Shown one piece after another: positions 8,793-64,000 of a stretch of 64,000 nt of DNA. Numbering within the stretch: the stretch's first letter is position 1; the number at the start of each line of letters is the position of its first letter. The position numbers and the translations under genes were made by a program. The notes under the pieces were generated by a model, which ran no database searches, had not been told where the DNA came from, and saw nothing but the letters and a program-made list of their open reading frames with translations. This DNA comes from an uncultured Actinomyces sp. (GTDB lineage Bacteria > Actinomycetota > Actinomycetes > Actinomycetales > Actinomycetaceae), in contig URAS01000002.1 in assembly GCA_900545825.1 (NCBI GenBank), positions 91,953-155,952 on the forward strand, written 5' to 3'.

Positions 8793-9053
8793 TCGCGTAG
8801 CCTTCATTCCTTTTCTCGTTGGCGGAATCCGCCAGGATCTTTTCCGTGTGTGCGCCTTTTGTTTCGCGCCCAGGTGGGAACCGGACGCAGTTTGTGGGCG
8901 CACAACATTTCCACCCTAGAGGTGGCCGGGGCCGAAATCAACGCGGGCCCGGTGTTGACTGGGGCACACTGGGGTGCGCCGAACTCCGGCGCACGCCCCG
9001 CGCCTCCCACCGTCAACGCCGCCTTTTGTGGTCACGTTCATGCAGAGGTACGG

Positions 9054-45393: not shown

Positions 45394-45561
45394 GGTCGCT
45401 CCTCACAACCTTGTGGGGTGATCTACCAGCACGATCATATATGCTTCCAGATAGGATGCCAAGAGTTTGGGCGACTTTTCCGCAGCCCCTCCCCCGAGAC
45501 GGCGGATCGTGTATGATTTCGGATAGGATTATGTATCCCGTAGCAGACCCAAGGAGGCGTT

Positions 45562-48715: not shown

Positions 48716-48900
48716 ACTAATCGTATATGATTTCCTCGATAACGCGCCAGCCCCCGCGAGCCAACCGCCCCGGCCAGGCCCTTCACGCATCCCGACCACA
48801 CGCAATCCGCCAGAGAGAACTTCGCCGTTCCTCTTGACGCCGCCTGGTCGACCCCGTAGGCTGGAGTCAATCATATACGATTGAATGTATGATTAATCCG
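48716..48900. promoter_or_regulatory. Divergent promoter region carrying the operator-like 12-bp palindromes ATCGTATATGAT (48720-48731) and ATCATATACGAT (48870-48881), plus the half-site GAATGTATGATT
   Basis: AT-rich palindromes in a 70% GC background. The same motif occurs at 45506-45517 and 54102-54113. Confidence 0.5.
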
Positions 48901-48933
48901 AGAGAGACGACGTCGACTCCCACGGGAAGGACT

Positions 48934-50415
48934 GACATGGATCCTGTAACCGCCACCATTGGCCATCGCCCCGGCAAGATTTTCGCCGTTCACCTCTCGT
49001 ACGCCTCGCGCGCCGCGCAGCGCGGCCGCACGCCGGCCAACCCGTCGTACTTCTTTAAGGCGCCCTCGTCGCTGACCGGCTCGGGCACCGTCGCCCGTCC
49101 CGAAGGCTGCGAGCTCGTGGGCTTCGAGGGCGAGGTCGCCGTCGTCATCGGCACGCCCGGGCGCAACATCAGCGTCGAGGACGCGTGGAGCCACGTCGGC
49201 TGGGTGACCGCGGCGAACGACCTCGGCCTCCACGACATGCGGTACGCCGACCGCGGCTCGAACGTCCGCTCGAAGTCGGGCGACGGCTACTCCCCCGTCG
49301 GCCCCACGCTGCTGGATGCGCGTAAACTCGACGAAAAGCGCATCGGCGTCAAGACGTGGCTGGACGGCGCCCTCGTGTCGGACGACAACACGGGCGGGAT
49401 GCTGTTCACGATCTCGACGATGATCGCCGACCTCTCGCGCCTCCTCACCCTGGAGGAGGGCGACATGATCATGACCGGCGTCCCCGCCGGCGCATCGGTC
49501 GCCGAGCCGGGCCAGACGATCGAGGTCGAGGTCTTCAGCCTCGACGATCCCAGCCTGACGACGGGCCGCCTGCGCACCGAGGTCGTCTCCGCTCCCCCGC
49601 TGGCCAAGGTCGGCCACGCCCCGAAGGTCGATGACGCCCAGCGTTCGGACGCGTGGGGCTACCCGATCGGCACGGTCAAGGCCGAGGCCGACCGTCGCGC
49701 CCCGCTGGACCCCGAGGTCCGCCGCCGCCTCGAGAACGTCGGCGTCGGCACCCTGTCGGTGCAGCTGCGCAAGCGCGGCTACAACGAGGCGATCATCGAC
49801 GGCGTCAAGCCGCTCACCCCGGGCACACGCCTTATTGGTCCGGCCCGCACACTGCGCTACGTGCCGTTCCGCAAGGACCTGTTTGCCCAGCTCGGTGGCG
49901 GATTCAACCACCAGAAGCAGGTCGTCGACTCGCTGCGCGAAGGCGACGTCCTCGTCATGGATGCGCGCGGCTGCACCGAGGCCGGCACGCTGGGCGACAT
50001 CCTCGCCCTACGCGCGAAGACGCTGGGAGCGGCGGGCATCGTCACCGACGGCGCGGCCCGCGACTCGGCGGAGGTCGAGCGCGTCGGCCTGCCGGTGTTC
50101 ACGAACGGCCGCCACCCGGCCGTCCTCGGGCGCCGGCACGTGCCGTACGAGCACGACGTGACGATCGCCTGCGGCGGCGCCACGGTATGCGTCGGCGACA
50201 TCATCGTCGGCGACGACGACGGCGCCATCGTCATCCCCCGCGACCTGCTCAACGAGGTCCTCGCCGACGCCGAAGCCCAAGAACACCGCGAGCGCTTTAT
50301 CGCCGAACAGGTCGCGGCCGGCGAGAGCCTCGACGGGCTGTTCCCCGTGGCAAGCGACCACTGGAAGGAACGCTTCGCCGAGTGGGAGAAGGACCACCCC
50401 GCCCCGACTGCGTAA
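48934..50415 (+). CDS. Fusion protein: an N-terminal fumarylacetoacetate-hydrolase (FAH/HpaG-like) domain plus a C-terminal RraA-like (HMG/CHA aldolase / oxaloacetate decarboxylase family) domain
   Basis: 493 aa (RBS GGAAGGA). N-terminal domain: GFEGEVAVVIG...MIMTGVPAG. C-terminal domain: VLVMDARGCTEAGTLGDILALRAKTLGAAGIVTDGAARD. Confidence 0.65.
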   Translation, partial: DMDPVTATIGHRPGKIFAVHLSYASRAAQRGRTPANPSYFFKAPSSLTGSGTVARPEGCELVGFEGEVAVVIGTPGRNISVEDAWSHVGWVTAANDLGLHDMRYADRGSNVRSKSGDGYSPVGPTLLDARKLDEKRIGVKTWLDGALVSDDNTGGMLFTISTMIADLSRLLTLEEGDMIMTGVPAGASVAEPGQTIEVEVFSLDDPSLTTGRLRTEVVSAPPLAKVGHAPKVDDAQRSDAWGYPIGTVKAEADRRAPLDPEVRRRLENVGVGTLSVQLRKRGYNEAIIDGVKPLTPGTRLIGPARTLRYVPFRKDLFAQLGGGFNHQKQVVDSLREGDVLVMDARGCTEAGTLGDILALRAKTLGAAGIVTDGAARDSAEVERVGLPVFTNGRHPAVLGRRHVPYEHDVTIACGGATVCVGDIIVGDDDGAIVIPRDLLNEVLADAEAQEHRERFIAEQVAAGESLDGLFPVASDHWKERFAEWEKDHPAPTA

Positions 50416-50499
50416 CCCCGCAGGCGTCACTCCGCCCGACATCCCGGCGCCCAGCGCCCCGACACTTGTTGATTGTTCCGACTGACTGAAGGAGACCCC

Positions 50500-52032
50500 A
50501 TGACCGACGCAACCGGGTTGTTGCCGGATCACATCCAGCACTACATTGGCGGCCAATTCGTCGATTCGGCCGACGGCGACATGTTCGACGTCCTCGATCC
50601 GACGACGAACGAGGCCTACATCCAGTGCGCCTCCGGGAAGGCCGCCGACGTCGATGCCGCCGTTGCCGCCGCCCGCAAGGCGTTCGACGAGGGCCCGTGG
50701 CCCACGATGCAGCCGCGCGAGCGCGCCCGCATCCTCTACCGGATCGCCGACGAGGTCGAGAAGGTCCACTCCGAGCTGGCGGCGCTGGAGAGCCGCGACT
50801 CGGGTCTGCCGATCCGCCAGGCGAAGGGCCAGGCGAACCGCGCGGCCGAGAATTTCCGGTTCTTCGCCGACCTCATCGTTGCCCAGCGCGACGACACGTA
50901 CAAGATGCCGGGCCGCCAGATTAACTACGTCAACCGCAAGCCGAAGGGCGTCGCGGGCCTCATCACGCCGTGGAACACGCCGTTCATGCAGGAGTCGTGG
51001 AAGCTCGCGCCGGCCCTGGCGTCGGGCTGCACCCTGGTCCTCAAGCCCGCCGAGTTTACGCCCGCGTCGGCGTCGCTGTGGGCGGGCATCATGGAGCGCG
51101 CCGGCGTCCCCGAGGGCGTCTTTAACCTCGTCAACGGCTTCGGCGAGACGGCGGGCGACGCCCTCGTCAAGCACGAGGACGTCAACCTCATCTCGTTCAC
51201 CGGCGAGGCCGGCACGGGCCGCGTGATCTTCGCGAACTGCGCGCCGACGATGAAGGCGATGTCGATGGAGCTGGGCGGCAAGTCCCCGGCCGTCATCTTC
51301 GCCGACGCCGACTTCGAGGCCGCCCTCGACTCGACGTTGTTCGGCGTGTTTTCGCTCAACGGCGAACGCTGCACGGCGTCCTCGCGCATCCTCGTCGAGC
51401 GCCCGATTTACGACCGCTTCGTCGAGGCGTACGCCGAGCGCGCGAAGAAGATCAAGGTCGGCGTCCCGTCGGATCCCGACACCGAGATCGGCGCCCTCGT
51501 CCACCCCGAGCACTACGACAAGGTGACGAGCTACGTCGAGATCGGCAAGAAAGAGGCGCGCCTGGTCGCCGGCGGTGAGCGGCCCGCGGGCTTCGAGAAG
51601 GGCAACTACCTCGAGGCGACGGTGTTCGCCGACGTCGACCGCGACGCGCGGATCTTCCAGGAGGAAATCTTCGGCCCCGTCGTCTGCATCACCCCGTTCG
51701 ACACCGACGAGGAGGCCCTCGAGCTCGCCAACTGCGTCGAGTACGGCCTCGCCGCCTACGTGTGGACGAAGGACGTCACCCGCGCCCACCTGTTCGCGCA
51801 CGGGATCGAGGCCGGCATGGTGTGGGTGAACTCCCACAACGTCCGCGACCTGCGCACCCCGTTCGGTGGGGTCAAGGCCTCCGGCCTCGGCCACGAGGGC
51901 GGCTACCGCTCCCTCGACTTCTATTCCGACCAGCAAGCTATCCACATTCGCCTGGGCGACGTGCACACCACTCGCTTTGGCGCCACCGGTTACGCCGATA
52001 ACGACCTCGGCCTGGGCGGACCTTCCGCGTAA
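50500..52032 (+). CDS. hpaE: 5-carboxymethyl-2-hydroxymuconate semialdehyde dehydrogenase (HpaE / XylG family ALDH)
   Basis: 510 aa (RBS GAAGGAGA) with MELGGKSPAVIF, LNGERCTASSR (Cys) and EEIFGPV. Confidence 0.82.
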   Translation: MTDATGLLPDHIQHYIGGQFVDSADGDMFDVLDPTTNEAYIQCASGKAADVDAAVAAARKAFDEGPWPTMQPRERARILYRIADEVEKVHSELAALESRDSGLPIRQAKGQANRAAENFRFFADLIVAQRDDTYKMPGRQINYVNRKPKGVAGLITPWNTPFMQESWKLAPALASGCTLVLKPAEFTPASASLWAGIMERAGVPEGVFNLVNGFGETAGDALVKHEDVNLISFTGEAGTGRVIFANCAPTMKAMSMELGGKSPAVIFADADFEAALDSTLFGVFSLNGERCTASSRILVERPIYDRFVEAYAERAKKIKVGVPSDPDTEIGALVHPEHYDKVTSYVEIGKKEARLVAGGERPAGFEKGNYLEATVFADVDRDARIFQEEIFGPVVCITPFDTDEEALELANCVEYGLAAYVWTKDVTRAHLFAHGIEAGMVWVNSHNVRDLRTPFGGVKASGLGHEGGYRSLDFYSDQQAIHIRLGDVHTTRFGATGYADNDLGLGGPSA

Positions 52033-52121
52033 CCCCTCCGCGCGGCGTGGGCGGCCCGTCCACGCCGCGGCCTACACAGGCAATGCCCGATTACCGATGT
52101 CACAGCCAAAGGAGACTGATC

Positions 52122-53201
52122 ATGCACGAAATCGATCCCATCGCCACCCCGACCGCGCCTGCCCCGGACATCCTCCGATGCGCCTACATGGAAGTCATCG
52201 TGTCGGACCTTGCACGGTCGCGTGAGTTCTACGTCGACACGCTCGGCCTCGTCGTCACCAAGGAGACCGAGGACGCCCTCTACCTGCGGACCTTCGACGA
52301 GTTCATCCACCACAACCTCGTCCTCCGCGTTGGCCCGACGCCGGCGGTCGCCGCGTTTGCGTTCCGCGTCCGCAGCCCCGAAGAGGTCGACAAGGCCGAG
52401 GCCTACTACAAGGAGCTGGGCTGCCGCACCGAACGGCGCAAGGACGGCTTCGTCGACGGCATCGGCGACGCCGTGCGCGTCGAGGACCCGCTGGGCTTCC
52501 CCTACGAGTTCTTCTTCGAGTGCGAGCACGTGCCGCGCATGTGCTGGGACTACGACAAGCAGTCGGCCGGCGCCCTCGTCCGCCTCGACCACTTCAACCA
52601 GGTGTTCCCCGACGTCGTCAACGGCTCGAAGTACCTGGAAGACCTGGGCTTCAAGCGGACCGAGGACATCAAGGACGACAAGGACGTCACCTACGCCGCG
52701 TGGTTCGCGCGCAAGCACACCGTCCACGACACGGCGCTGACCGGCGGCGACGGCCCGAGGATGCACCACATCGCGTTCGCGACGCACGAGAAGCACAACA
52801 TCCTCTACATTTGCGACAAGCTGGGCGCCCTGCGCCAGTCCGACGCGATCGAGCGCGGCCCGGGGCGTCACGGCGTCTCGAACGCGTTCTACCTGTACCT
52901 GCGCGACCCCGACGGGCACCGCGTCGAAATCTACACGCAGGACTACTACACGGGTGACCCCGACAACCCGACGATCACGTGGGACGTCCACGACAACCAG
53001 CGGCGTGACTGGTGGGGCCACCAGGTCGTCCCGTCGTGGTACCGCGACGCCTCGCTGGTCCTCGACCTCGACGGCAATCCGCAGCCGCTCATCGCCCGCC
53101 AGGAACCGAAGGAGCTGGACGTGACGATCGGCGCCGACGGCTTCTCGTACACCCGCAAGGGCGACGAGGAGAAGGGCTACAAGGTCGGGTCGCAGCTGTA
53201 G
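52122..53201 (+). CDS. hpaD: Homoprotocatechuate (3,4-dihydroxyphenylacetate) 2,3-dioxygenase, a type I extradiol dioxygenase
   Basis: 359 aa (RBS AAAGGAGA). Two VOC modules with His/Glu metal ligands (HHIAF...; E in DPDGHRVEIY). Confidence 0.8.
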   Translation: MHEIDPIATPTAPAPDILRCAYMEVIVSDLARSREFYVDTLGLVVTKETEDALYLRTFDEFIHHNLVLRVGPTPAVAAFAFRVRSPEEVDKAEAYYKELGCRTERRKDGFVDGIGDAVRVEDPLGFPYEFFFECEHVPRMCWDYDKQSAGALVRLDHFNQVFPDVVNGSKYLEDLGFKRTEDIKDDKDVTYAAWFARKHTVHDTALTGGDGPRMHHIAFATHEKHNILYICDKLGALRQSDAIERGPGRHGVSNAFYLYLRDPDGHRVEIYTQDYYTGDPDNPTITWDVHDNQRRDWWGHQVVPSWYRDASLVLDLDGNPQPLIARQEPKELDVTIGADGFSYTRKGDEEKGYKVGSQL

Positions 53202-53303
53202 ACCAGCCCACGTTGTGGCACCCGGGCGGCGGCGGCCGGTCCCCATCCCGTTATGCTGGGACCGGCGCCGCTACCGGGCGGCGTCGCGATCAAGGAGGCT
53301 GAG

Positions 53304-53960
53304 ATGGCCGAGGGCATGTCCAAGTCGGAACGCGTCTACATGAAGCTGCGCGAGGGGATCCTCCAGGGCAAATACACGCCCGGCTACCGTTTCGTCCTCG
53401 ACCGGATCGCCCGCGAGGAGGGCGTGTCGCCCGTACCCGTACGCGAGGCCGTGCGACTCCTCGAGGCCGAAGGGCTCGTCACGTTCCAACGCAACGTCGG
53501 CGCCGTCGTCTCGGCGATCGACAAGCACGTCTACGCCGAAACGATGGAGACCGTCGCCGTCCTCGAGGGCTATGCCACCGCGCTGGCCGCGGCACACATC
53601 ACCGAGGACGACCTCGCCGAAGCCCAGAACGTCAACGACCGGATGCGGCATCGGCTGACCTCGGCGTTTGACCCGCGCGAGGTGACGCTCCTCAACAAGC
53701 AGTTCCACCGGATCATTACCTCGGCGTGTCCCAACCAGCGCATGCTCGACATCCTCGAGCGTGAATGGGACCGCATCACCTTTATTCGACGCAGCCAGTT
53801 TGCGTTCGACCCCGTCCACTCGATCCGTTCCGTCGACGAGCACGACGCCATCATCCAGGCGATGCGCGAGCGCGACGCCGACCAGATCGAGCAGCTGGCC
53901 CGGCAGCACAAAATGCGGACGCTGCGCCAGTACCTGGCCACCGACCACTCCCAGGCGTAA
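53304..53960 (+). CDS. GntR-family transcriptional regulator (FadR/FCD subfamily), the likely regulator of the cluster
   Basis: 218 aa (RBS AAGGAGG). N-terminal winged helix-turn-helix (RIAREEGVSPVPVREAVRLLE) plus an FCD domain. Confidence 0.8.
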   Translation: MAEGMSKSERVYMKLREGILQGKYTPGYRFVLDRIAREEGVSPVPVREAVRLLEAEGLVTFQRNVGAVVSAIDKHVYAETMETVAVLEGYATALAAAHITEDDLAEAQNVNDRMRHRLTSAFDPREVTLLNKQFHRIITSACPNQRMLDILEREWDRITFIRRSQFAFDPVHSIRSVDEHDAIIQAMRERDADQIEQLARQHKMRTLRQYLATDHSQA

Positions 53961-54072: not shown

Positions 54073-54150
54073 TTGACACCGTGGCGTACGTCACGGTTAT
54101 AATCGTATACGATCGCGTTTATGGTCGCATATGTGACTCACGTTCACCGC
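54073..54150 (+). promoter_or_regulatory. Near-consensus promoter of the MFS gene (TTGACA at 54073-54078, 19 nt, TATAAT at 54098-54103) overlapped by three operator-like palindromes
   Basis: CCGTGGCGTACGTCACGG sits between the -35 and -10 boxes. ATCGTATACGAT (54102-54113) overlaps the -10. CTCACGTTCAC (54138-54148) matches the GTCACGTTCAC motif of the 60-63 kb inverted repeats. Confidence 0.5.
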
Positions 54151-54161
54151 TGATAGGAGCC

Positions 54162-55604
54162 ACCATGACCCACCAGTCGACCCCCTCCCCCGCCAGCTCC
54201 CAGCTGGTCCTTAACCCCCACAACCGTGAAGACCGCAGAGTCGCGGTCGCCACCCTCGTCGGCACGACCGTCGAGTGGTACGACTTCTTCATCTACTCCA
54301 ACGCCGTCGCCCTCGTGTTCGGTCCCCTGTTCTTCGAGCCGCTGGCCAAGGAAAACACCGTGCTGGCCCAGCTCATCGGGTTCGCGACCGTGGGCATCAG
54401 CTTCTTCTTCCGCCCGCTGGGCGCCATGGTCGCCGGCCACCTGGGCGACAAGATCGGCCGCAAGGCGATGATGGTGGCGACGCTGCTGCTCATGGGTGGC
54501 GCGACCGTCCTCGTCGGCTGCCTGCCGACGTACGCGTCGATCGGGATGGCCGCGCCGTTCCTCCTCATCGCCCTCCGTATCCTCCAGGGCTTCGCGGCCG
54601 GCGGCGAGTGGGGCGGCGCCGCCCTCATGGCGGTCGAGCACGCGCCGGCGAAGCGCCGCGGCTGGTTCGGCGGGTTCCCGCAGGTCGGCGTGCCTCTGGG
54701 CATGCTGACGGCGACGGCGGTCCTCGCGATCGTCCACGTCATCTCGCGCGACCAGTTCACGACGTGGGGCTGGCGGATCCCGTTCCTCCTGTCGGTCGTC
54801 CTCATCATCGTCGGCATGCTCATCCGCCTCAAGGTGTCGGAATCGCCGATCTTCGAGGAGGTCCGCAACGAGGAAGACCAGCTGCGCCTGCCGATCGTCC
54901 AGCTGTTCCGGTTCAACGGCAAGCAGGTCGTCCTCGGCGCCCTCGCGTTCATGGGCAACGGCGTCGCCGGATACATGGTGACCGGCGGCTACATCCTCGC
55001 CTACACGTCCGGGCCCGGCGGCCTGGGGGTCAGCGCCGAGCACATGCTCACGCTCATCACGATCGCGTCGGCGCTGTGGGTCTGCTCGACCCTGTTCGCC
55101 GCGTGGATTTCCGACCGGATCGGGCGCGTGCGGACGTTCCAGATCGGCTTCGTCCTCCAGCTGCTGTGGGTGTTCCCCCTGTTCATGTTCGTTGACCGCG
55201 GCCAGATCGGCCTCATCGCCCTCGGCATGCTGCCGCTGACGCTGGGCCTGGGCCTGACCTACGGCCCGCAGTCGGCGATGTTCGCCGAGATGTTCCCGGC
55301 CCGCGTCCGCTACTCCGGCGCCGGCATGGCGTACGCGATCGGCGCGATCCTCGGTGGCGCGTTCGCGCCGATGATCGCCACGTGGCTGAGGGCGACGTTC
55401 CACACGTCGATGGCGGTGTCGACCTACCTGTTCATCTTCACGGCGATCGGCATGGTCGGCGTGTCCCTGATCAAGGACCGGACGGGCAAGCCGCTGGGCC
55501 GCGACGCGAACGACATCCCCGGCAACGCCGAGCTCGAGGCGGCCGTCACGGCGCACTCGGTCTCCGGTACGAAGGCGACGTTCGAGCGCGGCGCCGGCTG
55601 GTAA
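54162..55604 (+). CDS. MFS transporter of the metabolite:H+ symporter family; probable aromatic acid permease
   Basis: 480 aa with 12 TM segments, the signature GHLGDKIGRK and GGEWGGAALMAVEHAP. Confidence 0.8.
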   Translation, partial: TMTHQSTPSPASSQLVLNPHNREDRRVAVATLVGTTVEWYDFFIYSNAVALVFGPLFFEPLAKENTVLAQLIGFATVGISFFFRPLGAMVAGHLGDKIGRKAMMVATLLLMGGATVLVGCLPTYASIGMAAPFLLIALRILQGFAAGGEWGGAALMAVEHAPAKRRGWFGGFPQVGVPLGMLTATAVLAIVHVISRDQFTTWGWRIPFLLSVVLIIVGMLIRLKVSESPIFEEVRNEEDQLRLPIVQLFRFNGKQVVLGALAFMGNGVAGYMVTGGYILAYTSGPGGLGVSAEHMLTLITIASALWVCSTLFAAWISDRIGRVRTFQIGFVLQLLWVFPLFMFVDRGQIGLIALGMLPLTLGLGLTYGPQSAMFAEMFPARVRYSGAGMAYAIGAILGGAFAPMIATWLRATFHTSMAVSTYLFIFTAIGMVGVSLIKDRTGKPLGRDANDIPGNAELEAAVTAHSVSGTKATFERGAGW

Positions 55605-55855: not shown

Positions 55856-57526
55856 CTACGAGAGGCCGATGACCTCGCCGTTGACCAAGTCCATGTCGAG
55901 GGCGCGCGGGTGCTTGGGCAGGCCCGGCATCGTGAGGATCTTGCCGGTCAGGCAGACGATGAAGCCGGCACCGAGGCTGGGGCGCAGCTCGCGGACGGTG
56001 ATCGTGAAGCCCTCGGGGGCGCCCATGACCTTGGGGTCGTCGGTGAACGACGCCGGCGTCTTGGCCACGCACACGGGCAGGCGGTCGTAGCCCAGCTCCT
56101 CCAGACGGGCCAGCTGCGCCTGCGCCTCGTCGGTGAGGACGACACCGTCGGCGCCGTAGCAGCGGCGGGCGACGGCGTTGAGCTTGTCGAGCAGCGAGTC
56201 CTCGTCGGCGTAGCAGCGATTCGGCACCACCGGGTCGCCCTCGGTGGCGGCGGCGATGACGGCGTCGGCAAGAGCGGCCCCACCCTCGCTGCCCTTGGCG
56301 AAAACCTCGCAGGGCGCGGCCGTCACGCCGGCCTCGCGGCAGAAGTCGCTGATCACAGCCAGTTCGGCGTCGGTGTCGGTGGCGAAGCGGTTGACCGCGA
56401 CGACGCAGCGCATCCCGAACGCCTGGAGGCTTTCCAGGTGCCGCGCGAGGTTCGCGGCGCCGCGGCGGACGGCCTCGACGTCCTCGGTGCCGAGGTCGGC
56501 CTCGGCGACACCGCCGTGCATCTTGAGGGCGCGCACCGTCGCGACGACGACCGTGCACGAGGGACGCAGGCCACCGAAGGCCGAGACGATGTCGAGGAAC
56601 TTTTCGGCGCCCAGGTCGGCACCGAAGCCGGCCTCGGTGACGACGAAATCTGCGAGCTTCAGCGCCGTCTTGGTCGCGATCAGCGAGGACGCGCCGTGGG
56701 CGATGTTGGCGAAGGGGCCACCGTGGACGAACGCCGGGGTGTGCTCGAGGGTCTGGACGAGGTTCGGCTTGACCGCATCCTTGAGGATCATCGCGAGAGC
56801 GCCCTCAATACCGAGGTCGTGGACGGTCAGCGGCTGGCCCGAACGGGTGTAGCCGACGAGGACGCGGCCCAGGCGCGCCTTGAGGTCGTCGGCGTCGGAC
56901 GCCAGGCAGAGGATCGCCATGATTTCGCTGGCCACGGTGATGTCAAAGCCGTCCTCGCGGATGTCGCGGTCCTTGCGGACGCCGCGGCCGACGGTCAGCT
57001 GGCGCAGCGCGCGGTCGTTGACGTCGATGCAGCGGCGGACGGCGACGGTGTCGGGGTCGAGGTCCCACTCGTTACCCCAGTACAGCGTGTTGTCGATGCA
57101 CGCACACATGAGGTTGTTCGCCGCGGTGATCGCGTGCATGTCGCCGGTGAAGTGGAGGTTGATGTCGTCCATCGGGACAACCTGGGCGTAGCCGCCGCCG
57201 GCCGCGCCGCCCTTGCGGCCGAAGACCGGGCCCATCGAGGGCTCGCGCAGGCACGCGACCGCGCGCTTACCGGCCGCGGCGAGCGAGTCGGCGAGGCCGA
57301 CCGTCACCGTCGACTTGCCTTCGCCGGCGCTGGTCGGCGAAATGGCCGTGACCAGGACCAATCGGCCGTCCTCCTGGTCGGCGACGCGACCCATGAGGGC
57401 GGTGGAGACCTTGGCTTTCGTCGTGCCGTAGAGTTCGAGGTCGCCCTCGTCGATCCCCAGCTTCTGCCCGATGGCGCGGATGTCGTCCAGTTCGGCCGCA
57501 CGCGCGATCTCAATGTCCGTGAGCAT
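55856..57526 (-). CDS. fhs: Formate--tetrahydrofolate ligase
   Basis: 556 aa. MLTDIEIARAAELDDIRAIGQKLGI...PTSAGEGKSTVTVGL (P-loop). Confidence 0.93.
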   Translation of the reverse strand: MLTDIEIARAAELDDIRAIGQKLGIDEGDLELYGTTKAKVSTALMGRVADQEDGRLVLVTAISPTSAGEGKSTVTVGLADSLAAAGKRAVACLREPSMGPVFGRKGGAAGGGYAQVVPMDDINLHFTGDMHAITAANNLMCACIDNTLYWGNEWDLDPDTVAVRRCIDVNDRALRQLTVGRGVRKDRDIREDGFDITVASEIMAILCLASDADDLKARLGRVLVGYTRSGQPLTVHDLGIEGALAMILKDAVKPNLVQTLEHTPAFVHGGPFANIAHGASSLIATKTALKLADFVVTEAGFGADLGAEKFLDIVSAFGGLRPSCTVVVATVRALKMHGGVAEADLGTEDVEAVRRGAANLARHLESLQAFGMRCVVAVNRFATDTDAELAVISDFCREAGVTAAPCEVFAKGSEGGAALADAVIAAATEGDPVVPNRCYADEDSLLDKLNAVARRCYGADGVVLTDEAQAQLARLEELGYDRLPVCVAKTPASFTDDPKVMGAPEGFTITVRELRPSLGAGFIVCLTGKILTMPGLPKHPRALDMDLVNGEVIGLS

Positions 57527-57721: not shown

Positions 57722-58522
57722 CTAATTCAGCACGGACAGCGCGGCCTGGTCGGTGCATTTCGCCAGTCGGCGCCGCAGCGCGTCCTCGGGCAGCTCGCCG
57801 ACCGCGGCGACGACGACGAGGTTCCCGGCTTTCCCACCGCCCTCGCCGCGCAGGACCCGCCCCGGCCCGACGAGGGCGACGGAGTCGAAGTGCCGCTTGG
57901 CGACGTCAACCTCGGCGCGGGACGGCCCCAAACCGGCCGCGCAGTTGGCGACGACGAGGCCGGTCGCCGGGTCGACGGCCCGGCGAGCCAGACTCCAGAA
58001 TCCTTCGCCGAGCAACGCCCCGGGCACCGCGCCGGCGGCGAATGCGTCGCGGACGACGACGCGGCAGGCGCCCTCGCGTGCACCGGCCAGCGCCTCGGCG
58101 CCGTCTTGGACGCGCAGCGACAGTGCGGGTTTGCGGGGCAGGGCGAACCAGCGCCGGGCCGCGGCCACCATGTCGGGGTCGATTTCCGCTGTCACCTGCC
58201 GCGATCCGCGGTACCGGGCCGCCCACGCCCGAGGCAGCGCGCAGCCGGCGCCGCCCAGGTGGAGGGCGACGTCGCCCTCGGCCAGTCCTCCGGCGGCCGC
58301 AACGACCGCGTCCATCCACTGCATGTATCCGAACGTCAGGTGCGTCGGGTCGGAAAGGTCGAGGGCGGACGACGGCCGCTGGTCGATGAGGACCGTGGCG
58401 ATCGTCCCGTCGACGCGCACCTCGATGCGGCCGCACGCGGCGTCGATCGGGGCATAGTCGCCGGTTGCGTCGCGGCGGCGGGCGCGTCCCACGGGCAGCT
58501 CCTCGCGTATGGTTGGTCTCAT
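57722..58522 (-). CDS. Spermidine-synthase-like protein (polyamine aminopropyltransferase / SAM-methyltransferase fold)
   Basis: 266 aa from an internal ATG. VALHLGGAGCALPRAW...VTAEIDPDMV resembles the spermidine synthase core. The start is uncertain. Confidence 0.5.
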   Translation of the reverse strand: MRPTIREELPVGRARRRDATGDYAPIDAACGRIEVRVDGTIATVLIDQRPSSALDLSDPTHLTFGYMQWMDAVVAAAGGLAEGDVALHLGGAGCALPRAWAARYRGSRQVTAEIDPDMVAAARRWFALPRKPALSLRVQDGAEALAGAREGACRVVVRDAFAAGAVPGALLGEGFWSLARRAVDPATGLVVANCAAGLGPSRAEVDVAKRHFDSVALVGPGRVLRGEGGGKAGNLVVVAAVGELPEDALRRRLAKCTDQAALSVLN

Positions 58523-60257
58523 GACTACAGCCCATCCTACGGAGCCCACCGCGCTCGACCAGCGCGCCGACCGTTTCCACGACGACATGCTCGCCCTCTC
58601 GCCGATCGGCCAGACCTTCGCGGGCCTCCACGACAACGACGCGACCTGGGACGATATGTCGCCCGCCGGCTACGACGCCGCGACGGACGCGATCCGCCAG
58701 ATGCTTGCCGACGTCGACGCCCTCGAGCAGCAGGAAGGCGGCTTTACCGGCAACGACGCCGTCACCGCGGCCGCGCTGCGTGAGCGGCTGGGCCTGGAGC
58801 TGCAGCTGGACGAGCGCAACGAGTACCTCGGTGACCTCAACAACATCGCCTCGCCGTTCCAGTCGCTGCGCGACGTGTTTGGCCTGATGCCGACCGATTC
58901 GCCCCAGGCGCGCGACAACATCCGCGCCCGCATCGCCGCGATGCCGACCGCGCTGGCGGGGATCCGCGAGAGCCTCGACGCCGCCCGGTCGCGCGGACGC
59001 GTCGCCGCCGCCCGCCAGGTCGAGCTCGTGGCCCAGCAGGCCGACGACTTCGCGAAGGCCGGCGGCTACCTCGACGACCTCGCGACGCCCGAAAAGGGCG
59101 AGGACGAGGGCGCCTGGGCCGCTGCCGCCACCGACGCCAAGGCGGCGTTGGCCGAGTTTTCGGCGTGGCTGCGCAAGGATCTGGCGCCGGACGCGCCCGA
59201 GGCCGACGGCGTGGGCCGCGAGCGCTACGAGCTGTTCTCGCAGCAGTTCGTCGGCGCGAAGGTCGACCTCGCCGACGCGTATTCGTGGGCGTTGGAGCAG
59301 CTGGGCGACCTCATCGTCGAGCAGCAACGCCTGGCCGAGCAGCTGTACGGCGCGGGGACCACCGTGCCCGAGGCGCTGGAGAAGCTCAACGCCGATCCCG
59401 CGCGGCAACTGATCGGCACCGACGCGCTGCGCGAGTGGATGCAAGGCTGGGCCAACCGGGCGTTGAGCGAGGTCGGGCGCGATTTGATCGACATCGACCC
59501 GCGCGTGGCGACCATCGACTGCGTCATCGACCCGGCGGGCACCGGCGGCATCTACTACCTGCCGCCGGCCGAGGACTTCTCGCGGCCGGGCCGCATGTGC
59601 TGGGCCGTCCCCGAGGGCGAGGACACGTTCCACACGTGGCAGGAGCTGACGACCGTCTTCCACGAGGGCGTCCCAGGCCACCACCTGCAGATCGGCGCGG
59701 CGATGTGCGCGGGGCTCAACAAGTGGCGCGCACAGGACTGCTGGCTGAGTGGGCACGGCGAGGGCTGGGCGCTGTACGCCGAGTCGCTGATGACCGAGCT
59801 GGGGTATGAGTCCGAGCCGGGCGAGCGGATCGGCTACCTCGACTCGCAGCGGTTGCGGCTGGCACGCGTCGTCCTCGATATCGGCGTCCACCTGGGCCTG
59901 CCCGTCCCGCCCGAGGGCCCGTGGAGCGCGGGCCTGCGCACGTCGGGCACGTGGGATGCCCAGTTCGCGTGGGATTTCTTGAAGGCGAACGTCGCGATGG
60001 CCGACGGGTTCTTGCGGTTCGAGTGCGACCGGTACCTCGGCTGGCCGGGGCAGGCGCCCTCGTATGCGCTGGGCCAGCGGTTCTGGCGGCAGCTGCGCGG
60101 CGACTACCTGCAGGCGGCGGGCGCCCCGCGCGACCTGCCGGTCCGCCGCGCCGACGGGACGATCGACCCGCTGCAGCGCGAATTCCACACCCGCGCCCTC
60201 GCCCTCGGGTCGTTGCCGCTGGACGTGCTGCGGGAGGCGCTGCTGCCCCGCCCGTGA
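58521..60257 (+). CDS. DUF885-family protein (HExxPGHH motif, putative metallopeptidase-like)
   Basis: ~578 aa with HEGVPGHHLQ. Start at the ATG at 58521 (MTTAHP); an alternative ATG lies at 58509. Confidence 0.55.
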   Translation: MTTAHPTEPTALDQRADRFHDDMLALSPIGQTFAGLHDNDATWDDMSPAGYDAATDAIRQMLADVDALEQQEGGFTGNDAVTAAALRERLGLELQLDERNEYLGDLNNIASPFQSLRDVFGLMPTDSPQARDNIRARIAAMPTALAGIRESLDAARSRGRVAAARQVELVAQQADDFAKAGGYLDDLATPEKGEDEGAWAAAATDAKAALAEFSAWLRKDLAPDAPEADGVGRERYELFSQQFVGAKVDLADAYSWALEQLGDLIVEQQRLAEQLYGAGTTVPEALEKLNADPARQLIGTDALREWMQGWANRALSEVGRDLIDIDPRVATIDCVIDPAGTGGIYYLPPAEDFSRPGRMCWAVPEGEDTFHTWQELTTVFHEGVPGHHLQIGAAMCAGLNKWRAQDCWLSGHGEGWALYAESLMTELGYESEPGERIGYLDSQRLRLARVVLDIGVHLGLPVPPEGPWSAGLRTSGTWDAQFAWDFLKANVAMADGFLRFECDRYLGWPGQAPSYALGQRFWRQLRGDYLQAAGAPRDLPVRRADGTIDPLQREFHTRALALGSLPLDVLREALLPRP

Positions 60258-60336
60258 ACGTGATCCTTTCGTCCGTTTTCATCACGCCCATGGGCCTCAA
60301 GCGGTGAACGTGACCTTTTTGATCACGTTCACCGCG
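60252..60336. repeat. IR-L: an ~85-bp low-GC block with two palindromes (CGTGATC...N16...ATCACG and GCGGTGAACGTGACC-TTTTT-GATCACGTTCACCGC) in the promoter of hydratase-2. It is the inverted copy of 62930-63013
   Basis: The reverse complement of 62977-63013 is CCGTGAACGTGACCCTTTCGTCCGCTTTCATCACGTT versus 60252-60288 CCGTGAACGTGATCCTTTCGTCCGTTTTCATCACGCC. Confidence 0.6.
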
Positions 60337-60409
60337 AGGGCGCCGGAGCGCGCGACGCGGCCGGAATTCCCGCGTAAGGTGGGGAGGCATCACGACGCAA
60401 GGAGGCGCC

Positions 60410-61195
60410 ATGCTCACCGACGACCAGATTTCCGCTGCCGCAGCCGACCTCGCCGAGGCCGCCGACACGCACCAGCTTGCTACGCCGCTGACCAGGCGGT
60501 TTACCGACATGACCATCCCGGACGCCTATGCGATTCAGCGCGCCCGGGTCAAGGAGCGCGAGGCCGCCGGCGAGCGCGTCGCCGGGCACAAGGTCGGCGT
60601 GACGTCGCGGCCCCTCCAGCGGTCGCTGGGCCTCGAGGCGCCGATTTTCGGCACGATCTTCGCCGATGACGTCCGCGATTCGGGGGCGTCGTTCGATTGG
60701 TCGCTGTTGCACGGCCCGCGCCTGGAGGTCGAGTTGGCGTTCATGATCGCCGAAGACCTGGTCGGCCCCAGCATCAGCCCCGCCGCCGCCCTTGCAGCGA
60801 CCGAGTACGTGCGCGCCGCCCTCGAGGTCGTCGACACGCGTGTGAGCCCCGACGGGTCGACGATGGTCGACGCCGTCGCCGACAACTCGAGCCTGGGCGC
60901 GATCGTCCTCGGCGAGGAAGAGGTGCGGCCCGACCTCCTCAACCTGCGCTGGTCAGGGGCGATGCTCTACCGCAACGACGAGCTGGTCGGCACCGGCCTG
61001 TCCGCGGGCGCCCTCGGGAACCCCGCGAACTCGCTCGCCTGGCTGGCGAACACGCTGCCGACCTACGGCGACCACCTGCGCGCCGGCGAGGTCGTCATGA
61101 CCGGGGCGTTCATCGCTCCCCTGCCGGTCGAGCAGGGTGACCACATTCGCGTCAACTACGGCCACCTCGGCGAGGTCACCTGCGCCTTCGCGTAA
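60410..61195 (+). CDS. 2-keto-4-pentenoate / 2-oxo-hept-4-ene-1,7-dioate hydratase, paralog 2
   Basis: 261 aa (RBS AAGGAGG), ~45% identical to the hydratase at 45562. PRLEVELAFMIAED; GEVVMTGAFIAP. Confidence 0.8.
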   Translation: MLTDDQISAAAADLAEAADTHQLATPLTRRFTDMTIPDAYAIQRARVKEREAAGERVAGHKVGVTSRPLQRSLGLEAPIFGTIFADDVRDSGASFDWSLLHGPRLEVELAFMIAEDLVGPSISPAAALAATEYVRAALEVVDTRVSPDGSTMVDAVADNSSLGAIVLGEEEVRPDLLNLRWSGAMLYRNDELVGTGLSAGALGNPANSLAWLANTLPTYGDHLRAGEVVMTGAFIAPLPVEQGDHIRVNYGHLGEVTCAFA

Positions 61196-61348
61196 CGCGT
61201 CGGGAGCGCGCGCGTCGTCCTCGAACATGAGCCCCAAATGTGAGTTTTTTCGGTGCGTAGCCGCCGGTTACGCACCGAAAAAACGCACAGAAAGGCGTAA
61301 GAGCGCAAGGGGATTACCCCCGAAACGTCACCTGCGCGGACTGCGCCC

Positions 61349-62812
61349 CTACCGCGGGATGCCGACGTACACGGTCTCGAGGAACTCGTCGATGCCAGTG
61401 TGGCCGCCCTCGCGTCCCAGGCCCGACGCCTTAACGCCGCCGAAGGGCGCAGCGGCATTCGACACGGTCTGCGAATTCAGCCCGATCATGCCGACCTCCA
61501 GGCGGTCGACCAGCCGGAAAATCCGCGCGGCATCGTTCGTGTAGACGTACCCGGCGAGGCCGTACGGCGTGTCGTTGGCCCACTCGAGCACCTGATCCTC
61601 GTCGTCGAACGCGAGGACGGGCGCGACCGGGCCGAAGACCTCCTCGTGCATGAGCGGGTCGTCGGGCCCGGACACGCGGATAACCGTGGGCTCGAAGAAG
61701 AAGCCGTCCCGGTCGATCCGGTGCCCGCCCGTGACGACCTCGCTGCCCGCGGCGACCGAACGGTCCACCAAATCAGCGACCGAATTGAGCTGCTTCTCGG
61801 AGATGATCGGGCCGACGTCGACGCCGTCCTCGAGGCCGTCGCCGACGGTCTGCGCCGCCATCTTGTCGGCGAAACGGCGCGTGAATTCGTCGACCAGCGA
61901 GCTGTGGATGAAGAAGCGGTCGGCGGCGTTGCAGGCCTCGCCCATGTTGCGCATCTTCGTCGCCATCGCCGCGTCGACGGCGAGGTCGAGGTCGGCGTCG
62001 GCAAACACGATGAACGGCGCCAGGCCGCCCAGCTCCATCGACGTGCGCAAGACGTTGTCGGCCGCCTGCTTGAGCAGCGCGCTGCCGACCCCCGTCGACC
62101 CGGTAAACGACACCTTGCGCAGGCGCGGATCCGCCATCAACGGCCCCGTGACCTGCCTGGTCGACGCCGTGGGGACGACGTTGACGACGCCCGCAGGCAC
62201 GCCGACCTGCCGAAGGACGTCAATGAACAGCAGCGACGTCAGCGGCGTGTCGTGCGACGGCTTGAGGACGCACGTGCACCCGGCCGCGAGCGCCGGCGCG
62301 ATCTTGCGGGTCGACATGGCCAGCGGGAAGTTCCACGGCGTGATGAACAGGCACGGGCCGACCGGGCGCTGATGGGTGATGACGTGGATGGCGCCCTCGG
62401 GCGTGGGGTAGGCGTCGCCGGAAATATGGGCGGCGACCTCGCTAAACCAGCGGAGGAACTCGGCGCCATAGACGACCTCGCCGCGCGCCTGGTCCAGCGG
62501 CTTTCCCATTTCCAGGGTCATAAGGGCGGCGAAGTCGTCGGTCAGTTCGATGACGCGGTCGTAGGCGGCGGCCAGCAGGCTGGCGCGGGTGCGGGAGGGC
62601 GTTTCGGCCCACGCGCGCTGGGCGGCGCAGGCGGCGTCGAGGGCGGCCGCACCGTCGGCCTCGGTGCCGTCGGCGACCTGGGCGAGGACCTGCCCGGTTG
62701 CCGGATTGAGGACGTCAAAGGTTGCACCACCTGCGGCGTCGCGCCATTCTCCATTGACGAACACCTGGGTGGGGATACGGCTGATGAGGGCGTCGACGTC
62801 TACTGTGGCCAC
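61349..62812 (-). CDS. Succinate-semialdehyde dehydrogenase (GabD-like), paralog 2
   Basis: 487 aa from the GTG at 62812 (RBS AAGGAG plus a 7-nt spacer), ~65% identical to the SSADH at 47224. MELGGLAP; MGEACNAADRF. Confidence 0.8.
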   Translation of the reverse strand: MATVDVDALISRIPTQVFVNGEWRDAAGGATFDVLNPATGQVLAQVADGTEADGAAALDAACAAQRAWAETPSRTRASLLAAAYDRVIELTDDFAALMTLEMGKPLDQARGEVVYGAEFLRWFSEVAAHISGDAYPTPEGAIHVITHQRPVGPCLFITPWNFPLAMSTRKIAPALAAGCTCVLKPSHDTPLTSLLFIDVLRQVGVPAGVVNVVPTASTRQVTGPLMADPRLRKVSFTGSTGVGSALLKQAADNVLRTSMELGGLAPFIVFADADLDLAVDAAMATKMRNMGEACNAADRFFIHSSLVDEFTRRFADKMAAQTVGDGLEDGVDVGPIISEKQLNSVADLVDRSVAAGSEVVTGGHRIDRDGFFFEPTVIRVSGPDDPLMHEEVFGPVAPVLAFDDEDQVLEWANDTPYGLAGYVYTNDAARIFRLVDRLEVGMIGLNSQTVSNAAAPFGGVKASGLGREGGHTGIDEFLETVYVGIPR

Positions 62813-62929
62813 GGTTTCGCTCCTTCGCGATCGGTCGGCCCCCGCACACGCGCCAGGGCCGGCGGAATTGTCCGTTTTTCTCAGCCTAACGCCGGGGCCC
62901 AACTTCGGCACCCGCAGGCGCTACCCCCA

Positions 62930-63013
62930 CAGTGAACGTGACGTGAAAAGGTCACGTTCACGGATTGACGCGCGTTAACGTGATGAAAGCGGACGAAAGG
63001 GTCACGTTCACGG
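62930..63013. repeat. IR-R: the inverted copy of IR-L (GTGAACGTGAC-GTGAAAAG-GTCACGTTCAC and CGTGAT...GTCACGTTCACGG). It sits in the promoter of SSADH-2 and overlaps the glycerate kinase stop codon
   Basis: See IR-L. Confidence 0.6.
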
Positions 63014-64000
63014 GGCCAGGCCGAGCGTCGCCAGCCGCATGATCGTCGCGGCGGTGCGGGTGAGGTTCTCGGCGCCGTCGGCGAGGGCGTCCTCCAGGGT
63101 GACGACGCCGGGGACGATGGGGACGAGCGCGGTCGCACCGCGGCCCAGGAGGGCGTCGGCGCCGGGCCTCACCGACCCGCCGACGAGGACGCAGGGGACG
63201 CCGGCCTCGCGGGCCAGCTCGGCGACACCCGCCGGCGTCTTACCGTCGAGCGTCTGGCGGTCTAATGCGCCCTCACCTGCGATAACAAGGTCGGCGTCGG
63301 CGAGAATTTCGCGCAGCCCCACGGCGTCGGCGACGATCTGGACGCCCGGCCGCAGCGTCGCGCCGAGGGCGAGTAGCGCCCACCCCAGCCCGCCGGCCGC
63401 CCCGGCCCCGGGCGCGTCGGCCAGGCCCGCCGCCCGCGGCAGCGCTGCGGCGACGGCCCGCTCGACGCGCCGGGCGCCCTCGTCGAGAAACCGCACGTCA
63501 TCGCCGGTTGCGCCCTTCTGCGGGCCGAACACGGCCGCGGCGCCCTGGTCGCCCAGCAGCGGATTCGTCACGTCGGACGCGCCGGTCAGCGTGACCGACC
63601 CCAGCCGCGGATCCAGGCCGGACGTGTCGACGCGCGCGAGGCCAGCCAGCCTGGCCGGCGTCGGCTCGAGCCGCGCGCCCGCGCCATCGAGGAACCGCAC
63701 GCCGAGCGCCTCGAGCATCCCCGCGCCGGCGTCCGACGTCGCCGACCCGCCAAGCCCCACGAGGACGTCGCGCGCCCCCGCATCCAACGCGGCCCGAATC
63801 AGCTGCCCGACACCCTGCGACGACGCGGCGCGAATGTCGCGCTTGCCCGGGTCGATCACCCCCAGGCCGACCGCCGCGGCGACCTCGACGATCGCCCGCT
63901 CGCCCGCGATCGCGAACTCCGCGGTGACCGGCCGCCCGAGGGCGTCGACGACCTCCACGCTTCGCAGCCTGGCGCCGAGGCTGGCGGCAACCGCCCTCGT
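63008..64000 (-). CDS. Glycerate kinase (GarK/GlxK family), C-terminal ~330 aa; the N-terminus lies beyond the window end
   Basis: ...GLGGSATSDAGAGMLEALG...LVIAGEGALDRQTLDGKTPAGVA... Confidence 0.8.
   Translation of the reverse strand, partial: TRAVAASLGARLRSVEVVDALGRPVTAEFAIAGERAIVEVAAAVGLGVIDPGKRDIRAASSQGVGQLIRAALDAGARDVLVGLGGSATSDAGAGMLEALGVRFLDGAGARLEPTPARLAGLARVDTSGLDPRLGSVTLTGASDVTNPLLGDQGAAAVFGPQKGATGDDVRFLDEGARRVERAVAAALPRAAGLADAPGAGAAGGLGWALLALGATLRPGVQIVADAVGLREILADADLVIAGEGALDRQTLDGKTPAGVAELAREAGVPCVLVGGSVRPGADALLGRGATALVPIVPGVVTLEDALADGAENLTRTAATIMRLATLGLAP

Follow-up and report, generated by a model that had tools for sequence, protein, structure and literature searches.

The two inverted blocks that enclose a hydratase gene and an aldehyde dehydrogenase (ALDH) gene in the analysed stretch of 64,000 nucleotides (the window) very probably belong to a family of small, composite palindromic repeats, REP-dimer/BIME-like or MITE-like, whose copies are dispersed in the genome of one uncultured Actinomycetaceae species and lie strictly between genes. 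The best reading of this REP/BIME-like or MITE-like family is that it is new.

The preliminary description placed inverted blocks of ~85 bp at 60252-63013, and these are indeed present. An inverted-repeat search of the window found two arms of 69 nt (60251-60319 and 62946-63014) with 86% complementarity, and an nhmmer profile sets the limits of the whole blocks, B1 and B2, at ~83 nt each (Table 1). The predicted RNA fold of B1 has z-scores of -6.25 (+ strand) and -6.88 (- strand). Allowing at most one mismatch, the window contains nine occurrences of the 11-mer GTGAACGTGAC, where 1.63 would be expected; 0 of 100 shuffles reach nine, and the 11-mer is not enriched in coding DNA. Six of the nine occurrences lie in B1 and B2; the three outside the blocks, each with one mismatch, are compatible with chance, as 1.63 are expected. 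A related half-site had been reported in the MFS transporter promoter at 54138-54148. It is found, one position to the left and with one mismatch, at a frequency compatible with chance, and the nhmmer profile does not report it.

Table 1. Coordinates of the repeat copies and neighbouring features (window positions unless a contig is named).
Feature	Position	Strand	Description
B1	60251..60333	+	full copy, unit A then unit B; nhmmer E=8.8e-24; between DUF885 stop and hydratase-2 start
B1 arm h1	60254-60264		GTGAACGTGAT
B1 arm h2	60281-60291		ATCACGCCCAT; degenerate
B1 arm h3	60304-60314		GTGAACGTGAC
B1 arm h4	60322-60332		ATCACGTTCAC
B2	62931..63015	-	full copy, orientation opposite to B1; nhmmer E=9.8e-24; between glycerate kinase stop and ALDH-2 start
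B2 unit B arms	62932-62942 and 62951-62961		+ strand coordinates
B2 unit A arms	62974-62984 and 63001-63011		+ strand coordinates; 62974-62984 is GTTAACGTGAT, the degenerate second arm
11-mer GTGAACGTGAG	54137..54147	-	MFS 5' region, 1 mismatch; relic or chance
Solo unit-B-like relic	9009..9041	+	weak, degenerate; 13 nt 3' of truA stop; E=0.03-0.07, borderline
DUF885 gene	58521..60257	+	stop TGA 60255-60257 is the first TGA of B1 arm h1
Hydratase 2 (HpaH/MhpD-family FAA hydrolase)	60410..61195	+	between blocks, outside repeat
Separate hairpin	61239..61289		25-nt arms, 92% complementary; flanked by T and A runs; between convergent hydratase-2/ALDH-2
ALDH 2 (SSADH-like)	61349..62812	-	between blocks, outside repeat
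Glycerate kinase	63008..64000	-	cut by window end; start at L001 13735
L090 full copies	4271-4351, 9033-9114, 9416-9498, 9813-9894, 18374-18455, 19200-19281
L090 solo units	7917-7955 and 11220-11256
L093 copies	1937-2020, 3207-3288, 4860-4942		partial copy at 140-187

The element has a core of ~83 nt and reaches up to ~105 nt if its C-rich and G-rich flanks, which are loosely conserved, are counted. Each block is a head-to-tail tandem pair of one palindromic unit, A then B. Unit A (~38 nt) reads CGTGAACGTGAY-N16/17-RTCACGTTCAY, and unit B (29-32 nt), which is found alone as well, reads CGTGAACGTGAC-N6-8-RTCACGTTCAC. Only one of the two palindromes with 5-8-nt spacers previously described per block stands, namely that of unit B (60304-60332 in B1 and 62932-62961 in B2), in which 6-8 nt separate the 11-mer arms; the spacer of unit A is 16-17 nt. 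The CGTGAACGTGA arms are nearly invariant across copies. In an alignment of 15 copies, the boundaries are sharp, from CCGTGAACG... to ...CGTTCACGG, arms h1, h3 and h4 hardly vary, and the differences in loops, linker and flanks fall into subfamilies. Identity over the whole element, spacers included, is 84-93%. In all 15 copies, h1 is complementary to h4 along 11-12 nt (helix 1, alignment columns 16-26 and 86-96), and strong hairpins are predicted (z -2.7 to -7.4). Covariation tests supported neither a tandem-hairpin nor a nested topology beyond sequence invariance, and no compensatory changes occur; this arm invariance would also fit selected protein-binding sites. The left flank of the copies is always CC(C/G) and the right one is variable (TAT, GCG, CGC, GAG and others). 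No direct repeats, and thus no target-site duplications, flank the copies, and their ends carry no GTAG or CGTC tag.

An Rfam scan of 59800-63400 returned nothing at the blocks and chance-level matches elsewhere only, a scan for promoter and terminator consensus sequences found no sites and no U-tract in the blocks, and literature searches with the arm strings and for REP in Actinomycetaceae/Actinobacteria gave nothing relevant. Several known elements were considered and rejected. Integron attC sites (R'' RYYYAAC, R' GTTRRRY, in a co-oriented array adjacent to intI) share only the AAC/GTT core with the ends GGTGAAC/GTTCACC; the copies here have mixed orientations, housekeeping genes and one tRNA gene lie between them, and no integrase is among the gene calls. 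For parS, the Rex operator, CRP/FNR sites, the LexA box and DNA uptake sequences, spacing or consensus is mismatched, judging from the sequence, and the 11-mer shows no enrichment in coding DNA.

The block is not confined to this pair. A third copy, B3, lies outside the window, ~150 nt past its end (L001 13746-13833, corresponding to window positions 64155-64242), between glycerate kinase and an aldo-keto reductase (AKR) gene. It forms a direct repeat with B2 (93% identity over 68 nt) and an inverted repeat with B1 (87 nt, 84%). A whole-block pattern scan of metagenome contigs revealed further copies in other contexts, and larger loci of that genome (L090 and L093) added more: at least 12 full and 4-5 half-size copies beyond the three at the DUF885-AKR locus. 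Altogether, 15 full copies and 4-5 solo or partial ones, all intergenic, were counted in ~135 kb sampled from several contigs of one species, a part of its genome. Exact-protein look-up assigned the copy-bearing contigs to the same species (MAG accession series MDU0968xxx/MDU0970xxx), including the OKBA/OKKH contigs, whose best full-length MetK match is 84% identical. Three of the ten metagenome matches (L075, L078 and L083) were discarded as unrelated hexamer tandem repeats. A scan of a genome collection with GTGAACGTGA-N4-30-TCACGTTCAC gave 66 matches in scattered unrelated phyla, many of them (GTGAAC)n hexamer arrays, and none from Actinomycetaceae, the source species not being part of this collection; blastn of the block against plasmids gave no match.

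Contig L090 is 84% coding by the sum of its gene calls, yet 8/8 of its copies fall in the remaining 16%. The genes adjoining the copies are functionally unrelated: cysS/purL, metK, tRNA-Leu (on both sides), PTS EIIC, gdhA, and fucosidase, nitroreductase, helicase and ABC-transporter genes. Local clusters of three copies are found at the metK, PTS and DUF885-AKR loci. Within the 81 kb around the blocks, nhmmer detected only three clustered copies and one doubtful relic; copy density is therefore uneven.

The copies show a marked relation to stop codons. The overlap of the right-hand repeat (B2) with the glycerate kinase stop, noted before, was confirmed (TCA at 63008-63010 of the + strand); this stop is the first TGA of B2 arm h1. 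The left-hand repeat (B1) overlaps a stop too, that of DUF885, in the same CCG-TGA register. The DUF885 protein is not truncated, since its Pfam match is complete up to position 531 of 532. Including a helicase gene (L082) and an ORF (L080), the stop codon lies inside the first TGA of the element in four independent genes. In about two thirds of the full copies, end A faces the 3' end of a gene; others, such as B3 and those at 9033, 9813 and 18374 of L090, are found upstream of a gene or separate two divergent ones. The opposite orientations of B1 and B2 arise because both sit, with the same polarity, on the stop of one of two convergent flanking genes (DUF885 on the + strand, glycerate kinase on the - strand). 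As a result, they face each other around the hydratase/ALDH pair and mimic terminal inverted repeats around 2.7 kb.

Two intergenic regions of a syntenic relative (L085, MetK 82% identical) represent empty sites. The cysS/purL gap measures 4 nt in the relative (cysS-TAG-gtgg-CTA-purL) vs 110 nt with the element in L090, and the metK/mscS gap 44 nt vs 123 nt, the longer one holding a solo unit. Strains of the species showed no presence/absence differences, and the local gene arrangement is identical in ~23 assemblies. The SSADH loci of related species hold orthologs of ALDH 1, from the homoprotocatechuate (hpa) cluster, and not of ALDH 2; they are uninformative on a 2.7-kb insertion.

The genes between the blocks had been described as paralogs of those at 45.5-48.7 kb. 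They are related, though only loosely: hydratase 2 shares 46% identity with HpaH (45562-46347) and ALDH 2 70% with the ALDH of the hpa cluster (47224-48657, - strand). The hairpin that separates them has no relation to the repeat family and, from its sequence, is a probable bidirectional terminator. Contig L002 begins within B1.

A duplicated operator driving both promoters, as proposed in the preliminary description, does not hold up. It is most improbable that one transcription factor acts through the blocks to control jointly the promoters of the hydratase, ALDH, glycerate kinase and aldo-keto reductase genes, even though a block lies upstream of 4/4 local transcription units, the arms are sequence-invariant rather than co-varying, and the centre of unit B is placed ~69-70 nt upstream of the transcription starts at both B1 and B2 (inferred from TANNNT hexamers at 60375-60380 and 62883-62888). 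The same element occurs between cysS and purL, where two stops converge and there is no promoter, 5 nt past the metK stop, around tRNA-Leu and by unrelated genes. Its spacers vary within both units, and the high identity of whole elements, spacers included, points to copying rather than to convergent selection of sites. An operator of a regulon would be found at promoters of linked genes and be conserved at orthologs; the element is absent from the relatives' loci, including their hpa clusters. Moreover, another motif, ATCRTATAYGAT, is the candidate for the local GntR regulator; it has five sites in the window's hpa cluster vs 0.12 expected and none near the blocks, and is plausibly the operator of that regulator. 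It is also very unlikely that the blocks, rather than being selfish DNA, are maintained by host selection as hairpin terminators or as stabilisers of the 3' UTR. The orientation of end A toward gene 3' ends, the four overlapped stop codons and the very stable predicted folds would agree with such a role, but the blocks have no U-tract or terminator-like site and no compensatory covariation, several copies are upstream of genes or between divergent ones, and the solo unit after metK is trailed by a separate canonical hairpin.

The earlier suggestion of mobile DNA is right in spirit, the insertable unit apparently being the 83-nt block and not the 2.7-kb segment. For the latter to be a non-autonomous, MITE-like element carrying hydratase and ALDH, with B1 and B2 as its terminal inverted repeats, is highly doubtful. 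Exactly two genes are bounded by inverted copies, hydratase 2 looks foreign or fast-evolving (homologs outside the species are all at most 46% identical), and ALDH 2 is a paralog of the hpa-cluster SSADH. However, the target-site duplications sought just outside 60252 and 63013 are absent, only the two metabolic genes and no transposase lie inside, B3 bounds glycerate kinase likewise, and the arrangement does not differ among the assemblies of the species. Furthermore, every block has inverted termini of its own and is by itself a complete element, and its orientation tracks the stop codons of the flanking genes. We give equally little credence to the palindromes being cores of a tyrosine recombinase (Xer/dif-like), with the genes between them as exchangeable units similar to dif modules. 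The 11-6/8-11 arm-spacer-arm geometry of unit B is suggestive, and two contigs of one locus (L079 and L084) diverge exactly within a copy. The h2 variant TCACGTTAACG agrees at 7/11 positions with the E. coli XerD arm, and is a lead only. In the pdif modules of Acinetobacter plasmids, one or two genes are bounded by inverted XerC/XerD sites of arm-spacer-arm form, an arrangement that the two genes here may resemble. Unlike those modules, the element is chromosomal, follows housekeeping genes and surrounds a tRNA gene, has a variable spacer and two palindromes per block, and gives no sign of module exchange. The sampled loci contain no recombinase gene, and the junction between L079 and L084 may be chimeric through assembly; both contigs end in sequencing adapter.

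The dispersed repeat family shares many traits with the REP/BIME/REPIN elements of Proteobacteria. These are extragenic, often past stops, occur as singletons, dimers and clusters, include heterodimers with unequal loops and form lineage-specific subfamilies (PMC3733652, PMC3116915). Similarly, the units of the element are short imperfect palindromes of ~30-38 nt that form stem-loops, its dispersed copies are strictly extragenic and often directly past stop codons, it is present as singletons, dimers (20-100 nt pitch) and local clusters, its heterodimers have unequal loop lengths, and it is lineage-specific and subfamily-structured. In contrast, one end of most described REP families bears a tag, GTAG or CGTC (PMC3733652), which the element lacks, and its units are arranged head-to-tail, not head-to-head or tail-to-tail. 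Its host is an actinobacterium; in high-G+C Gram-positives (Actinobacteridae) only classical IS200-type Y1 transposases (subclass 1.1) are reported, and not the REP-associated type (PMC6006769). The DNA sampled showed no RAYT gene. Like MITEs, for example the Correia elements of Neisseria, the element is non-coding, ~80-110 nt long, ends in 12-14 nt terminal inverted repeats (CCGTGAACGTGA / TCACGTTCACGG), and is dispersed in intergenic DNA with filled and empty sites between related genomes. Unlike MITEs, its terminal repeat is duplicated internally and no parent insertion sequence was found; target-site duplications are absent, and it is therefore not a classical MITE.

Copies were probably inserted into intergenic DNA, often at or a few nt from a stop codon. 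The 10-11-mers, which are nearly invariant, would be what the mobilising agent recognises, probably in the form of single-strand hairpins or of terminal inverted repeats. No mobilising enzyme was found in the ~135 kb sampled, and no Y1_Tnp domain among the gene calls of the sampled loci. Once in place, the stable hairpins may act at the 3' ends of DUF885 and glycerate kinase as a terminator, an insulator or an mRNA stabiliser, and a hairpin starting at the stop codon could affect translation termination. A bolder reading, which we consider unlikely, sees in the family a novel class of small element from Actinomycetaceae, mobile or recombinogenic, that would target stop codons and whose invariant CGTGAACGTGA arms (11 / 6-8 / 11) would be sites for an unrecognised DNA enzyme. 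That enzyme would be either a tyrosine recombinase or a single-strand transposase of a new type, and the element could then shuffle or invert genes between copies, such as the hydratase/ALDH pair.

For annotation, the cassette and the shared operator are removed from this locus as false leads, and ATCRTATAYGAT is retained as an operator-like motif of the hpa cluster. Such repeats fragment short-read assemblies and can seed chimeric contigs. In a phylum without reported REP-associated transposases, the family raises a concrete question, namely what copies the element. An uncultured actinobacterium gains a well-delimited REP/BIME-like family, with unusually invariant arms, which recurrently provides the stop codon of the upstream gene.

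The two blocks around the hydratase 2 and ALDH 2 genes, B1 and B2, are ordinary copies within a family of small palindromic repeats that this species carries. Their inverted arrangement, reported in the preliminary description, was recovered in a repeat search of the window as arms of 69 nt (60251-60319 and 62946-63014) that are 86% complementary. Nine matches to the 11-mer GTGAACGTGAC with at most one mismatch are found in the window (1.63 expected), six of them inside the two blocks. The block edges are sharp, with CCGTGAACGTGA at the start and TCACGTTCAC at the end, and no similarity is seen outside. Each block had been described as carrying two short-spacer palindromes, which is correct for one of them: unit B has 11-nt arms (h3 and h4) and a spacer of 6-8 nt, but unit A, one per block, is of the long-spacer type, with 16-17 nt between its arms (h1 and h2) and a degenerate second arm. 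The overlap of B2 with the glycerate kinase stop codon, also described, is confirmed, and B1 overlaps the DUF885 stop (TGA, 60255-60257) in a CCG-TGA register identical to that of the glycerate kinase stop in B2.

Genes, repeat blocks, palindrome sites and element arms (positions in the window)
Feature	Position	Strand	Remark
FAD monooxygenase	43510-45393	-	
HpaH	45562-46347	+	
HpaI	to 47123	+	
ALDH 1	47224-48657	-	
FAA-hydrolase/RraA fusion	48889-50415	+	
ALDH	50473-52032	+	
Extradiol dioxygenase	52047-53201	+	
GntR/FCD regulator	53253-53960	+	
MFS transporter	54081-55604	+	
Formate-THF ligase	55856-57526	-	
DUF885	58521-60257	+	
B1	60251-60333	+	
Hydratase 2	60410-61195	+	
ALDH 2	61349-62812	-	
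B2	62931-63015	-	
Glycerate kinase	63008 onward	-	
ATCRTATAYGAT sites	45434-45445, 45506-45517, 48720-48731, 48870-48881, 54102-54113		intergenic/promoter regions of the hpa cluster, 5/5
Arm h1			CGTGAACGTGA, invariant
Arm h2			ATCACGTTCAY, outer half degenerate
Arm h3			CGTGAACGTGAC, almost invariant
Arm h4			TCACGTTCAC, almost invariant

The gene map, of DNA that comes from an uncultured Actinomycetaceae MAG, is based on third-codon-position GC and profile searches. The proposed paralogy with the genes at 45.5-48.7 kb is loose, with identities of 70% for ALDH 2 (to ALDH 1) and 46% for hydratase 2 (to HpaH). Among 5.8 billion proteins, all homologs of hydratase 2 outside its own species have at most 45% identity, whereas its neighbor ALDH 2 has many at 60-70%. 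Between these convergent genes, a hairpin at 61239-61289 (25-nt arms, 92% complementary) is flanked by Ts on one side and by As on the other, and resembles an intrinsic terminator that acts in both directions; a simple terminator scan did not pick it up. Downstream of fumC and roughly 4-5 kb before the window begins, one assembly has no called gene over ~1.5 kb (L089 15236-16742), and in a second assembly the calls there amount to just three ORFs of 35-38 codons.

A third copy, B3, is located ~150 nt beyond the window end, between the starts of the glycerate kinase and an aldo-keto reductase (13746-13833 of L001, the public contig holding the window; window = L001 + 50409). B3 repeats B2 in direct orientation, at 93% over 68 nt, and B1 in inverted orientation, at 84% over 87 nt. 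The element thus occupies three successive intergenic regions, and the glycerate kinase gene is bounded no less than the hydratase/ALDH pair. When metagenome contigs were searched with a pattern for the entire block, seven were found to carry it within otherwise unrelated DNA. By exact look-up, the MetK and PTS EIIC proteins of those contigs fall in clusters that share the MAG accession series of the window; the contigs are, as judged from these sequences, other loci of the same species. Full-size loci around both genes were scanned with an nhmmer profile built from the copies, giving six full and two solo unit-B copies in the 21-kb metK locus and three full copies and a partial one in the 13-kb PTS EIIC locus. 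Three short contigs (L080, L081 and L082) represent further loci with the element. The adjoining genes are diverse: cysS, purL, purF, a LacI regulator, tRNA-Leu(CAG), metK, an ABM monooxygenase, a nitroreductase, an alpha-fucosidase, an HTH_11 regulator, PTS EIIC, an AAA_16 protein, gdhA, an MrfA-like helicase, a Schlafen-domain protein, an MFS transporter, lipB and an ABC ATPase.

All copies found are intergenic, including 8/8 in the metK locus, 84% of which is coding by gene calls. Their density is uneven, with local clustering: apart from B1, B2 and B3, which form one such cluster, the 81 kb around the blocks (the window, 10 kb to its left and 7 kb to its right) contain just a doubtful relic (9009-9041). 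A short-read contig present in eight samples begins within B1 (L002 1-30), which fits assembly breakage at a repeat. Tandem arrays of the GTGAAC hexamer and its CGTGAA variants are present in unrelated organisms (L075, L078, L083 and several genome loci, among them Desulfobacterales L006, L028 and L050); they were rejected as relatives of the element, the pattern matching by chance of composition.

In about two thirds of the full copies, end A (CCGTGAACGTGA) faces a gene 3' end. The first TGA of the element is the stop codon of four independent genes, namely DUF885, glycerate kinase, the L082 helicase and an ORF of L080. As the profiles of DUF885 and glycerate kinase are matched up to their last positions, these two proteins are not truncated. 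Their orientation accounts for that of the blocks: with DUF885 (+) and glycerate kinase (-) converging on the hydratase/ALDH pair, each with a copy on its own stop codon, B1 and B2 lie inverted.

In a syntenic relative (L085; MetK 82% identical), the order TGT-cysS-purL-purF-metK-mscS-msrB is kept, and no element copy was found in the locus. There, 4 nt separate the stop codons of cysS and purL (TAG gtgg CTA), versus 110 nt in the source species, of which the element makes up 81 nt. Likewise, the metK-mscS spacer measures 44 nt in the relative versus 123 nt in the source species, where a solo unit lies 10 nt 3' of the metK stop codon. The element was not found in the hpa (homoprotocatechuate) clusters of relatives (L071-L074), and the exact unit-B palindrome had no Actinomycetaceae match among 185,579 species representatives, a collection without the source species. 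The family is specific to this lineage, the differences at orthologous sites being insertions of the element or its clean loss. The purF-metK interval is just 142 nt long in the relative (L085 9859-10000); in the source species (L090 8963-10000) it additionally includes a LacI-family gene, tRNA-Leu(CAG) and three copies of the element. In both species, a TAGGCT or TAGGGT hexamer precedes the mscS ATG by 6-7 nt (L090 11318-11341; L085 11244-11259), which suggests that transcripts in this lineage may be leaderless, with TANNNT serving as the -10 element. The hexamer also occurs in the window at 48856-48861, after a TTGACG -35 element at 48834.

In an alignment of 15 full copies, variation is structured by subfamily and is found in the A loop, the inter-unit linker, the B loop and the flanks. 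The linker GTTAACGCGCGTMAATCC is common to B2, B3 and the L082 copy, the CAGAAAGGTCAC A-unit to three copies, and TTTAAG loops with a TATSCGGGCG right flank to the three PTS-locus copies. C-rich sequence (CCCRCC) usually borders the element on the left, and G-rich sequence on the right. Strong folds are predicted on both strands (z -2.7 to -7.4), either as tandem hairpins or as a nested h1:h4/h2:h3 hairpin. Pair counts gave invariance and no compensation for either topology; one pair is suggestive (position 11 of h1 and of h4, U-A in 10 copies and C-G in three). We infer a constraint on the sequence of the arms, for which recognition by the agent that copies the element would be the simplest reason.

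The preliminary description offered two explanations for the blocks. Palindromes acting as a shared operator are at odds with one copy located between convergent stops and others next to a tRNA gene, on both its sides, or following metK, with relatives devoid of the element, and with an identity that covers the whole element, spacers included. A 2.7-kb cassette with terminal inverted repeats fails as well: the segment has no target duplication and no transposase inside, its arrangement is invariant across ~23 assemblies, and there is the third copy. A likely candidate operator of the local GntR/FCD regulator is the 12-nt palindrome ATCRTATAYGAT, with five sites in the window against 0.12 expected, one of them directly 3' of an MFS-gene promoter (TTGACA-N17-TATAAT); no site lies near B1 or B2.

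The element is possibly a recombination site, in view of its 11/6-8/11 unit geometry and of two contigs that diverge within one copy, although the spacer length is variable. These contigs (L079 753-873 and L084 1919-2039) are 98% identical at the metK/tRNA-Leu locus and have different flanks from inside unit A onwards. Illumina adapter sequence is present at the ends of both, and the divergence stems either from copies having recombined within a strain or from chimeric assembly. The preferred interpretation is a repeat family of the REP-dimer/BIME-like or MITE-like kind, with differences from each. The GTAG/CGTC tag expected of REP (PMC3733652) is missing from the element. A RAYT gene, the REP-associated transposase, would also be expected, but none was seen in the DNA sampled; RAYT-type transposases have not been reported in high-G+C Gram-positives (PMC6006769). 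A MITE is expected to show a target-site duplication, but none is present at the element copies. The element family is previously undescribed, a new family within a known kind.
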